IMG/VR virus record: IMGVR_UViG_2859810971_000007
Source: a virus
Lineage: Duplodnaviria; Heunggongvirae; Uroviricota; Caudoviricetes
DNA: 64,000 nucleotides
Strand: one strand, 5' to 3'
Below the pieces are notes generated by a model. That model did not search any database. It worked only from the letters and a program-made list of their open reading frames with translations, and was not told the origin of the DNA. Made by a program: the position numbers and the translations under genes. Positions 59,529 through 61,753 of the stretch are shown here, piece after piece. Numbering within the stretch: the stretch's first letter is position 1; every line of letters begins with the position of its first letter.

Positions 59529-59657
59529 TATTAGCTCCTTCTGATGCCATTCTATTTCAGGAAGGAGTGTCCGTTAAACTCAGGCTATCTCAATAAACCG
59601 TGCTGTGTAACTGCTGTGGATCAAATCTGACCACAACTTTTTTCACTCCGGCATTCA

Positions 59658-60182
59658 TTAATGCCATGTTGTAATAAACGTTTTTCGCGCCTTTAAGGGA
59701 GCCGCCCAGTCAGGCTTCGCAAACTTCTGTACCTGGTAATACTTGTCCCGCAAAGTGGATGCGCTGACCTGGTAATGCCCTGCAACGGTCGCAAAAGCCG
59801 TTTTCGTTGAAATCCCCTGGTTCAGCATTTCGTCTGTGGCCTGAATTGAGGGCAACCATTTTTCAGCCAGGCTGCGCTGGGAATCGCTGGCTTTATCCCA
59901 TTTGCTCCATAGTGCCTCACGATCATAATCATGAGCTTCCAGCGTGGGGCGGGCGATTTCAAAACATCCCTGACTGGTTTTAAATTTTCCTTGTTGGAGC
60001 AAAACTTCAGCTCGAGCAATGTTAGGAAGAGAAGATATATGGTATTCGTAAGCAACCCCTCTAATTCCTTCTCTTCTTCTCTTGAGCCATCCTTCTCTCT
60101 GAGCTCTTTTGTGAACCCCCATTAATGAACCAGGTAAACCAGATAAACCCATGCATTCAATTGCTGATATCCACTCTCTCAT
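59658..60182 (-). pseudogene. Mu-type transposase A, N-terminal fragment
   Basis: ...[88 protein letters not shown] matches Mu A N-terminal domain; remainder lost at IS600. Confidence 0.7.
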
Positions 60183-60411
60183 TGTGATCCCTTAGATATC
60201 TACTAGGCCAAATTTCCTCAGGTTTCATGTTTAAGGCGTCAGCAATAATGCGTTCACCTTTAGGCCATGGCCTGACTAATGCATTTGCAAGCGTCCCGGT
60301 TGAATAACCTGAACGTCTGGACAATTTTGCCAGAGGGGTTCCTGTTTTTTTGAGGGCCGCAATCACGTCGGCCCGATGCCAATCGTTACTCATCTTTCGC
60401 ACACCAACCAT
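60157..60411 (-). CDS. ner: Ner-like DNA-binding protein
   Basis: 84 aa; ...[33 protein letters not shown] matches Ner/Nlp family. Confidence 0.7.
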
Positions 60412-60564
60412 ATTGCGTATGATAAAGGGTTACCAAAACAAATAATTCGTCTTGATTATCTGTTTTATACATTACCAAATAAACCAAACCGGTTTATATC
60501 AGCTAATGTGGTTTATTTTGTAATCCATTGATTTTTATATAGATAAGTCTGGTAAGCTTAGTTT

Positions 60565-61074
60565 ATGAAAAGCGCAAATGAGATAAACCAGTGGATGACA
60601 CCCAAACAAATTACTGAACTGGATGGAATGCCTGGGACAATACAGGGGGTGCATAAACGAGCAAAGAAAGAAGGATGGCCGAAGCGTTCACAAGAAGGGC
60701 GTCGCGGGCCTGGGGTTGAATATATCCCGGCAATACCGGCTATGCAAAAAATTGCTATCGAAGAAATGAATGCTGATACATTGAAAATGTTCTCCCTGTT
60801 AATCAATAAACTAGGAGAAAATGAAGTCCGAGAGATAGAGCTAAACATGGCTAAATATGGGCTTTCCGGATTAATGCAAGAACGCCCCTCCATCTCCGTT
60901 GACACCCTATTGGCAACGCTGGGTATTGATCGCCAAACACTACAAACAGCTTTGGCGCTGCATAAATTACCTCCAGAAACTCGCCAAGAGATTTTGTCAA
61001 TGTATGGTGTTCATAAACAGGAAGAGCCTGTAGCTCCTTTGTTGGAACCACAAGATGCGAAAAAAGCCGTATAA
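60565..61074 (+). CDS. Mu c-type repressor
   Basis: 169 aa; N-terminal DGMPGTIQGVHKRAKKEGWPKR like Mu repressor/MuA DNA-binding fold; divergent from ner. Confidence 0.6.
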   Translation: MKSANEINQWMTPKQITELDGMPGTIQGVHKRAKKEGWPKRSQEGRRGPGVEYIPAIPAMQKIAIEEMNADTLKMFSLLINKLGENEVREIELNMAKYGLSGLMQERPSISVDTLLATLGIDRQTLQTALALHKLPPETRQEILSMYGVHKQEEPVAPLLEPQDAKKAV

Positions 61075-61329
61075 CAACCATGAGCCAGCTAAAACATACT
61101 TCACCTCACATAATCACACATGTAACATACCTAAACGGCATGAGCTGATTTGTGATATGAGTCATTTGGTGACAGCCTGGTTGTTATCGGTTTTGAACGT
61201 TTTTTGAAGCTATGATTGAAATGATTTATAGTGTTTTTGTTTTTCGTTTTTTCAATGAAACAAAAGCAATTTTTTACTATCTTTCGCGTTTCATTGGTTA
61301 ACGCCTAAAATTTGTACTACAGGCTTGCA

Positions 61330-61411
61330 AACCCCACCAAATCTAATCCCATCAGATCCCGAATAATCCAATGTTCTCCCGGTTTTTTCGTACTTCAAGT
61401 GAATCAATACA
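61330..61411. other. Mu-like left end (attL)
   Basis: Reverse complement reads TGTATTGATTCACTTGAAGTACGAAAAAACCGGGAGAACATTGGATTATTCGGGATCTGATGGGATTAGATTTGGTGGGG, the Mu left-end sequence; terminus at 61411. Confidence 0.75.
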
Positions 61412-61753
61412 CTGGGGCAAACGCTAACCCGTTTCCGCCAGCGTAAACATATGCTGGAAAGTATTGATAGCGCCAGCCAGAAGCAAATTGATGAGATGTT
61501 TAATGCCTATGCTCGCGGTGAACCCAAAGACGAACTGCCGACCGGCATTGACCCCTTGACGCTAAACGCGGTGCGAAAACTGTTTAAAGAGCCTGGTGTG
61601 CAACATACGGCAGAAACGGTGGCGCAGGCACTGACCATCAGCCGCACCACTGCCAGGCGTTATCTTGAATATTGCGCCAGCCGCCATCTGATTATTGCTG
61701 AAATTGTTCACGGCAAAGTTGGCAGACCACAACGCATATACCACAGTGGGTGA
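61412..61753 (+). pseudogene. dpiA: CitB-family response regulator (dpiA-like), C-terminal fragment
   Basis: Frame open from the Mu end; C-terminal HTH ...TISRTTARRYLEYCASRHLI...; upstream part replaced by Mu-like DNA; dpiA vs dcuR assigned by the adjacent dcuC. Confidence 0.55.

Follow-up and report, generated by a model that had tools for sequence, protein, structure and literature searches.

Left-end stump of a Mu-family prophage in dpiA of Shigella flexneri and the loss of the DpiBA system

In the 64-kb stretch of DNA analyzed here, which is referred to as a whole as the window, the 3' part of dpiA (citB) lies directly against phage DNA, raising the questions of how this response regulator gene was broken and what is left of the phage that entered it. 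The phage DNA is a left-end stump, 1.8 kb in size, of a Mu-family transposable prophage and represents a dead remnant. The last 8 kb of the window are an exact match to CP026810.1, and a literature search found no paper on the dpiA Mu-like remnant of S. flexneri. The features of the locus are listed in Table 1.

Table 1. Features of the dpiA-dcuC locus, with positions in the 64-kb window
Feature	Position	Strand	Details
IS600 copy 5	58329..59592	-	1264 bp; orfA 59226-59528, orfB 58372-59190; NCBIfam IS3-family transposase
Distal A fragment	59593..59706	-	About Mu nt 2849-2962 (2849-2964 by BLAST), A codons ~508-545; not in frame with the start of A
A' ORF	59658-60182	-	174 codons: MuA residues 1-162 and 12 frameshifted codons
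Deletion junction	59700..59706	+	Single kept copy of 7-bp direct repeat AGCCGCC, which once flanked 1042 bp of A
ner	60157-60393	-	78 aa, intact; Pfam HTH_35, E = 4e-29
Divergent c/ner control region	60394..60564	.	Candidate operators, enhancer and promoters; place of Mu O1-O3/Pe/Pc
c-type immunity repressor	60565-61074	+	169 aa, intact; Pfam HTH_Tnp_Mu_1
Mu-type left end (attL)	61075..61411	-	Terminal base 61411; MuA-binding sites L1-L3 inside
MuA-binding site L3	61241-61257		17-nt consensus YMYNWRAARYRCGAAAR, 2 mismatches
MuA-binding site L2	61281-61297		17-nt consensus YMYNWRAARYRCGAAAR, 1 mismatch
MuA-binding site L1	61385-61401		17-nt consensus YMYNWRAARYRCGAAAR, 0 mismatches
Target pentamer CTGGG	61412..61416	+	dpiA nt 340-344, adjoins Mu end; read from sequence
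dpiA (citB) 3' part	61412..61753	+	Codons 114-226 and stop; HTH output domain kept
dcuC	61794..63179	-	461 aa, intact ORF; Pfam DcuC, E = 4e-150; annotated dcuC in E. coli relatives
IS1	63248..64000	+	768 bp, window ends inside; 68 nt upstream of dcuC ATG (63179)

The Mu-type left end and its junction with dpiA

The initial annotation had placed a Mu left end against the 3' part of a CitB-family regulator gene, and alignment to Mu (Muvirus mu, NC_000929 / AF083977) resolved this join to the base. Mu nucleotide 1 corresponds to window position 61411, and the homology to E. coli dpiA begins at 61412 (dpiA nt 340); Mu nt 1-447 align to window 61411..60966, on the reverse strand, with 91.5% identity. 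The terminal sequence matches Mu-family ends, as TGTATTGATTCACTTGAAGTACGAAAA is common to Mu and the stump, and the terminal 30 nt are those of Mu except that the A-run is shorter by one base. The terminal 5'-TG...CA-3' end feature is also present, with the stump end reading TGTATTG from 61411. The MuA-binding sites L1, L2 and L3 have offsets of 11, 115 and 155 in the window versus 11, 116 and 156 in Mu, and their placement agrees with D108 and with the Mu-like prophage of E. coli UMNF18 as well. Across the 64 kb, the 17-nt consensus has three matches with at most one mismatch, two of which are L1 and L2. Because the consensus is so rare and L1 and L2 stand at Mu-equivalent positions, a chance origin of these two sites is excluded. 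Mu prefers targets of the form N-Y-(G/C)-R-N, which CTGGG fits; one Mu junction, the left, survives at the locus (junction 28-mer, AAGTGAATCAATACACTGGGGCAAACGC), and the CTGGG flank represents that side only. It had been proposed that a Mu-like phage entered dpiA and was later truncated, and this proposal is supported by the exact terminal join inside an otherwise perfect frame, by the architecture of L1-L3, c, ner and A, and by the CTGGG flank.

Comparison of the other side of the junction with the E. coli dpiBA (citAB)-dcuC locus showed collinearity across the 3' 342 nt of dpiA, a shared terminator hairpin and dcuC, at 97-99% identity. The 113 codons that end with the stop at 61753 encode amino acids identical to E. 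coli DpiA 114-226; the NCBIfam DpiA profile covers positions 114-226 of 226 with a score of 250.9, short of the full-length cut-off (264), and the C-terminal DpiA-type HTH domain is present (Pfam HTH_64, E = 4e-49). The receiver domain with the phospho-acceptor Asp57 is missing. By comparison with E. coli, dpiA codons 1-113, dpiB and citCDEF are all absent from the window; a search of the 64 kb for citF-dpiA 5' DNA yielded no match, and no intact regulator was found in the window. No complete E. coli genome has the stump beside dpiA.

The window also differs from E. coli in having an IS1 between dcuC and the dcuC upstream region. The position of this IS1 just upstream of dcuC, which had been noted at the outset, is as described, with homology to S. 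flexneri loci that are free of IS1 ending at 63247. A retrieved locus from the same record as the window (L014, 100% identical) contains the full 768-bp IS1 with a 9-bp duplication, AAATATGCC. This IS1 is a simple insertion that is private to the strain; an FNR-like box lies on one side of it and the start codon of dcuC on the other, and it may affect dcuC expression.

The early region of the stump

Inward of the left end, a c-type repressor followed by ner had been described, and both genes are intact. The synteny of the Mu early region (c toward the left end, divergent control region, ner and then A) is kept, and the A segments are 92-97% identical to Mu. The immunity core, by contrast, is unlike that of Mu: the c protein shows 34% identity to Mu c, Ner shows 67.7% identity to Mu Ner, and A diverges over its initial ~76 residues, the enhancer/operator-binding domain. 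Mu also has B, late genes and a right end, all of which the stump lacks, and the A gene of the stump is both truncated and internally deleted; B is absent from the early region in the window owing to truncation.

D108 and SfMu, two other transposable phages of the Mu family, have ends and an A gene similar to those of the stump but are heteroimmune to it, the window c protein being 28% identical to D108 c. SfMu, which shows that Mu-family phages infect S. flexneri, carries a D108-type repressor, its c being reported as 89% identical to D108 c (PMC4406740). The immunity type of the stump is therefore distinct from that of Mu and from that of D108/SfMu. The same immunity type is found in the UMNF18 Mu-like prophage (in yphC; NZ_AGTD01000001.1, 3086976-3118035), a nearly full-length element of 31 kb that retains both ends, is flanked by a 5-bp duplication, TCCGG, and occupies another chromosomal site. 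Its repressor is 84.6% identical to the window c, its Ner 98.7% and its A 96% over 544 aa, and DNA identity across the whole stump is 87.4%. Among E. coli complete genomes, UMNF18 is the only one to share this immunity region. While its prophage provides a picture of the ancestral element, over the outer left end (nt 1-447) Mu is closer to the window than the UMNF18 prophage is, indicating that the Shigella element is a mosaic.

Public assemblies contain the exact c protein in 6687 index blocks, a close cluster with 99% identity carries the name "DNA-binding protein [Shigella flexneri]", and the immunity group occurs in Salmonella and E. coli as well. Ascertainment explains part of the perfect conservation of c in the fetched loci, since these were retrieved by the exact c sequence. 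In the control region between c and ner, the motif GGTTTAT occurs three times, and a 16-nt inverted repeat has its arms at 60471-60486 and 60509-60524. Two promoter-like sites at 60396-60446 face c; the overall promoter count in the scan of 60100-63400 was no higher than in shuffles, and mapped Pe or Pc promoters are therefore not claimed. Rfam returned no matches on 58000-64000. Six of the 13 polymorphic sites among the S. flexneri copies lie in the 171 bp of the c/ner control region, a cluster that is regarded as a lead only. Outside the stump, loci L004, L010 and L022 hold dense blocks of differences, which complicate a comparison of SNP density.

The transposase gene had been described as its first 174 codons, ending at IS600. 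The start of A is indeed present, but only 162 codons are A; these are followed by a frameshift, the ORF stops 65 nt short of IS600, and a further piece of A (107 bp beyond the repeat, about Mu nt 2856-2962) runs up to IS600. The first 163 aa of A' share 99.4% identity with the 544-aa A encoded at the retrieved locus L006, 89% with the UMNF18 A and 71% with Mu A. A' covers MuA domain I-alpha and most of I-beta; Pfam gives HTH_Tnp_Mu_1 only, and the DDE catalytic core is missing. The distal A fragment is 96.6% identical to Mu and 97.4% identical to the UMNF18 prophage (BLAST), and in other S. flexneri loci it is contiguous with the rest of A. AGCCGCC occurs twice in L006 (8094-8100 and 9136-9142) and once in the window, and the loss of the 1042 bp shifted the frame of A, which accounts for the 12 unrelated codons after codon 162. 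Sibling S. flexneri copies have an A without this deletion, of 544 codons where called, with DDE_2 and Mu-transpos_C, that is likewise truncated.

The deletion was seen only in CP026810.1 and in a contig of ERR200328. As it is present in only one complete genome record, the gap could be attributed to an assembly artefact. It is however bounded by a 7-bp direct repeat, as are real slippage deletions, and a second deletion flanked by repeats, of 105 bp, is present in the next prophage of this strain. Moreover, the ERR200328 contig, which was assembled separately from a separate read set, is 100% identical over window 59565-61114, including the junction, making an artefact extremely improbable.

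IS600 and the missing right part

IS600, a member of the IS3 family, is ~1.26 kb in length, contains orfA and orfB, has terminal inverted repeats and generates a 3-bp target duplication. The copy that cuts A, at Mu nt 2964, is the fifth of five IS600 copies in the window, all in the same orientation; its termini (reverse complement) read TGAGGTGTACTGG... and ...TGAGATAGCCTGAG, and its identity to the other full-length copies is 99.6-99.8%. It is flanked by two different triplets, AAT and ATA, and therefore lacks a target duplication, as is expected at a junction formed by recombination or deletion. On its left, head-gene DNA of a vB_EcoM-689R2-like phage ends exactly at 58328; this IS600 copy thus forms a bridge between the Mu stump and a different truncated prophage. 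A search of the entire 64 kb for DNA of Mu (36.7 kb) and of the UMNF18 prophage gave the stump and, beyond it, only unrelated gin/U-like DNA at 23155-25722, which belongs to another prophage. The right end (attR, R1-R3), which in Mu and UMNF18 has the sequence TGAAGCGGCGCACGAAAAACGCGAAAG, was not found in the 64-kb window.

The absence of a target duplication and the presence of a different prophage on the other side of IS600 suggest an IS600-associated deletion, and the arrangement of the sequence points to this deletion having taken the right part of the Mu-like prophage together with the dpiA 5' part and dpiB. Inversion or translocation between two IS600 copies could also have created the junction, in which case the right part, the dpiA 5' part, dpiB and the cit operon would survive elsewhere. 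IS elements heavily rearrange S. flexneri chromosomes, and the missing target duplication is expected from either mechanism. In addition, Mu-related mor-lys DNA gave common hybridizing bands in many S. flexneri strains (PMC4406740); the remnants in that study were detected with mor-lys probes, a region that the stump lacks. However, in an exact 26-mer scan of a genome contig collection, in which one SNP hides a match, the predicted junction of the right end with the dpiA 5' part had no matches and the left junction had two, and a review table gives CitA/CitB as "not present" for S. flexneri 2a 301 (PMC9496106). As the five direct-orientation IS600 copies in the window also favor deletion, rearrangement with survival of these genes elsewhere is considered quite unlikely.

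Probable history of the locus and fate of the immunity genes

The insertion in dpiA and the IS600 cut were found in 10 other S. flexneri-type chromosomes identified via the c protein and in 2 more identified via the junction 28-mer, and the IS600 cut is common to all S. flexneri copies examined. The presence of both in 10 other chromosomes indicates that the insertion and the truncation are old and shared, while only this strain has the 1042-bp deletion and the IS1 upstream of dcuC. A history in which insertion into dpiA was followed by the IS600 cut and deletion, then by the strain-private deletion and IS1, leaving an immobile stump, is very probably correct. In this history, a Mu-like phage with an immunity type of its own would have inserted at the nt 339/340 boundary of dpiA in an ancestor of the S. 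flexneri lineage, splitting the response regulator between its receiver and DNA-binding domains; the join is observed and points to transposition. IS600 would then have entered A, and an IS600-associated deletion would have removed the remaining A, B, the late genes, the right end, the dpiA 5' part and dpiB, fusing the stump to what is left of the head region of a different, truncated prophage; here the junction is observed, and deletion rather than inversion is the probable cause. In this strain only, the 1042 bp of A would have been lost by slipped mispairing between the AGCCGCC repeats, both the deletion and the repeats being observed, and IS1 inserted at its site near dcuC, as is likewise observed. 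Both ends, the enhancer and MuA are required in Mu transposition (PMC3562280). As it retains a single end and lacks both B and a catalytic transposase, the stump cannot move, and a mobilizable mini-Mu is ruled out by the single end.

Judging from their sequence, the intact c and ner genes and their control region may still be expressed and could make the host immune to phages that share this rare immunity type. It has to be considered, therefore, whether the stump was kept because it is useful, as a domesticated immunity module against superinfecting Mu-like phages of its own immunity type. A is broken in two places but both immunity genes are intact, the control region, with its motif clusters, is complete, and the exact c protein occurs in thousands of assemblies; moreover, prophages of Salmonella and E. 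coli carry relatives of the repressor, which means that cognate phages are in circulation. S. flexneri is however young and clonal, and intact genes of 510 bp and 237 bp are expected from descent alone, while SfMu, given its D108-type repressor (PMC4406740), is presumably not repressed by the window c. The clustering of between-strain substitutions in the operator region could be taken as a sign of such use but would equally be explained by relaxed constraint in AT-rich intergenic DNA. Retention as a useful module is consequently judged unlikely. A broader reading would combine expression of c and ner as a retained determinant of immunity against a rare, uncharacterised Mu-like immunity group with ongoing selection on the operator region and with read-through from c, which could express the DNA-binding domain of DpiA (residues 127-226) without its receiver. 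Read-through is possible because no terminator-like site was found between c and the co-oriented dpiA remnant (scan of 60100-63400), but the combination as a whole is unlikely.

The net effect on the host is the loss of the DpiBA (CitAB) two-component system. The locus provides a base-pair-exact account of this loss in S. flexneri, in which Mu-type transposition into the regulator would have come first and the IS600-associated deletion second. The layers can also be dated relative to each other, as the insertion and the IS600 cut are species-wide and the 1042-bp deletion and the dcuC-side IS1 represent strain-private markers. The stump adds nothing new on the workings of Mu-like phages or IS elements, and its biology is ordinary; it does represent a clean case of phage insertion followed by genome decay, which can be of use in annotation, in strain typing and in the study of gene loss in Shigella.

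Junction of the Mu left end with dpiA

The stump, the left-end remnant of a Mu-like prophage (59593-61411), lies between IS600 copy 5 and the 3' part of dpiA ('dpiA). Its Mu-family left end runs leftward from 61411 on the reverse strand, and alignment of 61411-60966 with Mu nt 1-447 showed 91.5% identity; the first 30 nt are those of Mu, except that the A-run is one base shorter. A search with the 17-nt MuA-site consensus, as used in the D108 record, identified sites L1, L2 and L3, whose offsets are those in Mu, D108 and the UMNF18 prophage (a nearly full-length Mu-like prophage of E. 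coli UMNF18). At a threshold of one mismatch, three sites were found in the whole 64 kb, two of which are L1 and L2. E. coli homology starts at exactly 61412, corresponding to dpiA nt 340, and from there 113 codons run to the stop at 61753; their translation is the same as E. coli DpiA 114-226 and matches the NCBIfam DpiA model at these positions. The initial annotation had placed a Mu left end against the 3' part of a CitB-family regulator gene, which these data confirm.

Features of the stump and its boundary
Feature	Position	Strand	Description
L1	61385-61401		0 mismatches to 17-nt MuA-site consensus
L2	61281-61297		1 mismatch to 17-nt MuA-site consensus
L3	61241-61257		2 mismatches to 17-nt MuA-site consensus
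c-type repressor	60565-61074	+	intact; 169 aa; Pfam HTH_Tnp_Mu_1
ner	60157-60393	-	intact; 78 aa; Pfam HTH_35
A' ORF (start of transposase A)	59658-60182	-	174 codons
IS600 copy 5	58329-59592		1264 bp

As dpiA homology starts at nt 340, the insertion splits this gene between the receiver domain (with Asp57), which is missing, and the HTH_64 output domain, which is kept. CTGGG, the pentamer next to the Mu end, agrees with the N-Y-(G/C)-R-N preference of Mu for its targets. The Mu target is cut with a 5-bp stagger (PMC3562280); further Mu DNA was sought across the 64-kb window and none was found beyond the stump, and no right end is present to show the duplication. A broken dpiA is the consequence of the stump for the host, probably with loss of signalling through the DpiBA (CitAB) two-component system. 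In addition, the 'dpiA ORF of 100 codons (ATG 61451, HTH_64) is co-oriented with c (stretch 61074-61451). A scan of 60100-63400 found no terminator-like site between c and 'dpiA, the sole + strand site being a hairpin at 61763-61785, past dpiA, which makes it conceivable that read-through from c could express a receiver-less DpiA DNA-binding domain.

The neighbouring dcuC ORF is intact (461 aa). As initially annotated, an IS1 lies just upstream, beginning at 63248, 68 nt from the dcuC ATG. Other S. flexneri loci lack this IS1, which has a 9-bp duplication, AAATATGCC, on either side and therefore represents a simple strain-private insertion. Relatives without the IS1 have an FNR-like box, TTGATTTTAATCAG (1 mismatch), at -102 to -89 from the dcuC ATG; here the IS1 stands between this box and dcuC, and FNR-dependent induction of dcuC may reasonably be expected to be lost.

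Damage to transposase A and probable loss of the right part

While c and ner ORFs were found inward of the Mu end, as had been proposed, the 174 codons ascribed to transposase A did not hold up. Only residues 1-162 are MuA, sharing 99.4% identity with the 544-aa A of sibling strains and 71% with Mu A. A single AGCCGCC heptamer at 59700-59706 marks a 1042-bp deletion in A, and other S. flexneri loci carry two copies 1042 bp apart (8094-8100 and 9136-9142 in comparison locus L006). The deletion shifts the frame, and 12 unrelated codons therefore precede the ORF stop at 59658. A-derived sequence resumes for 107 bp at 59593-59699 (about Mu nt 2856-2962) and reaches IS600. As initially described, IS600 copy 5 is where DNA derived from A ends, but the ORF ends earlier. 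Overall, transposition of a Mu-like phage into dpiA followed by truncation is supported and can be extended to an exact junction at 61411/61412 and a transposase A that is damaged twice.

Window 56000-64000 is 100% identical to CP026810.1. The 174-aa chimeric A' was found only there and on a contig of run ERR200328; over the deletion junction this contig matches at 100%, indicating that the deletion is real and strain-private. The exact c protein occurs in 6687 index blocks, and its look-up yielded ten other multi-megabase chromosomes or contigs, including CP000266.1 (S. flexneri 5 str. 8401). All ten share the left junction, the IS600 cut and the neighbouring prophage; in five of them A is called as a gene, 544 aa long in four and 484 aa in the fifth, and carries DDE_2 and Mu-transpos_C domains. 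The junction 28-mer is also present in CP182556.1 (S. flexneri SFBU1023) and CP178302.1 (labelled E. coli ECMA0423, 4.44 Mb). In the latter (L021 4769-8000, window 60005-63247), the Mu/dpiA junction is the same and the stump identical, while the flank diverges sharply (12-13 differences in 342 bp of 'dpiA, 25 in dcuC), implying that the breakpoint of a recombination lies between 61331 and 61507 of the window. Dense difference blocks just outside the stump in some S. flexneri assemblies (L010 11230-12615, with 115 differences in 1386 bp of dcuC; L004 16901-20510; and L022) represent either recombination imports or assembly-quality problems.

To the left of IS600 copy 5 are vB_EcoM-689R2-like head genes (portal, Mu-F-like, scaffold-like and major capsid), homology to which stops exactly at 58328, within a small gene; no downstream head-completion or tail genes of this prophage are present. 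A single IS600, flanked by the triplets AAT and ATA and hence without a duplication, therefore bridges two truncated prophages. The window is very IS-dense and prone to deletions between direct repeats, with five IS600 copies in one orientation (8230-10800, broken by a ~1.3-kb insertion at 9313-10616; 21261-22524; 32706-33969; 41457-42720; and copy 5) and two IS1 copies (27628-28380 and 63248-64000). This strain alone also shows a second deletion bounded by repeats: the scaffold-like gene (Pa193_gp24 family; 371 aa vs 406 aa in other S. flexneri) has lost 105 bp in frame at 56231-56244, between direct repeats that are short and imperfect. Prophage DNA makes up most of what remains of the window: about 1-22.5 kb is a lambdoid-type prophage, followed by an ipaH (ipaHb) effector gene and a chromosomal ybhC-ybhJ-ybhI segment, and a second prophage (within 22500-58328) combines lambdoid replication and lysis genes with the vB_EcoM-689R2-like head genes. 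Short matches at 23155-25722 to two Mu genes, U (tail-fibre assembly, 80%) and gin (invertase, 84%), belong to the invertible tail-fibre region of another prophage and not to the stump.

The citF-dpiB-dpiA 5' DNA is absent throughout the window, and the missing Mu right part could have been either deleted together with dpiA 5' and dpiB or moved elsewhere by inversion or translocation. Deletion is favoured since CitA/CitB are given as "not present" for S. flexneri 2a 301 in a P2CS-derived review table (PMC9496106); since the predicted right-end/dpiA 5' junction 26-mer, sought as an exact match, was absent from a genome collection holding two left-junction carriers; and since all five IS600 copies are in direct orientation. 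Against these observations, inversion or translocation seems improbable.

The c-ner control region and immunity type

Mu transposition requires both ends, the enhancer and full MuA, with assistance from MuB (PMC3562280); with one end only, no catalytic core and no B, the stump is immobile. Its 171-bp divergent control region between c and ner (60394-60564) is complete and, with both genes intact, repressor expression and immunity to cognate phages would be possible. GGTTTAT occurs three times in this region, together with a 16-nt inverted repeat (60471-60486/60509-60524, 94% complementary), and these are candidate operator or enhancer sites of this immunity type; five of the window's ten GGTTTAT heptamers fall within 450 bp around it (60143-60589). 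A promoter scan of 60100-63400 gave a count not above chance. Among 12 S. flexneri stump copies, 6 of 13 variable sites are in the control region (60485, 60490, 60503, 60505, 60547 and 60556), vs 3 in A, ner and 'dpiA (about 2.2 kb in all). These six come from at least four lineages (three are private to the window's strain), and several touch or adjoin GGTTTAT motifs; selection on the switch may explain the cluster, as may relaxed constraint.

Judged from sequence identities, the stump is a mosaic. At its outer left end and over most of A it is 91-97% Mu-like, while c, ner and the first ~76 residues of A form a block that departs from Mu. Identity of c is 34% to Mu, 28% to D108 and 84.6% to the UMNF18 prophage; for Ner, it is 68% to Mu and 98.7% to the UMNF18 prophage. 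This 31-kb Mu-like prophage, inserted in yphC with both ends and a TCCGG duplication, carries a matching c-ner-A N-terminal block and shows 87.4% DNA identity to the whole stump. The N termini of the stump's c and A are alike (40% over 60 aa, including GVHKRA-EGW), as are those of Mu, which fits the known operator/enhancer-binding domain shared by c and A. The repressor has few relatives in the databases, from Salmonella enterica and E. coli; a close cluster, 99% identical to c, carries the name "DNA-binding protein [Shigella flexneri]". In S. flexneri, the characterised Mu-like phage is SfMu, whose repressor is of the D108 type (PMC4406740) and which is presumably heteroimmune to the stump. 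As a remnant, the stump preserves a heteroimmune member of a familiar class of elements and represents ordinary Shigella genome decay of low general interest.
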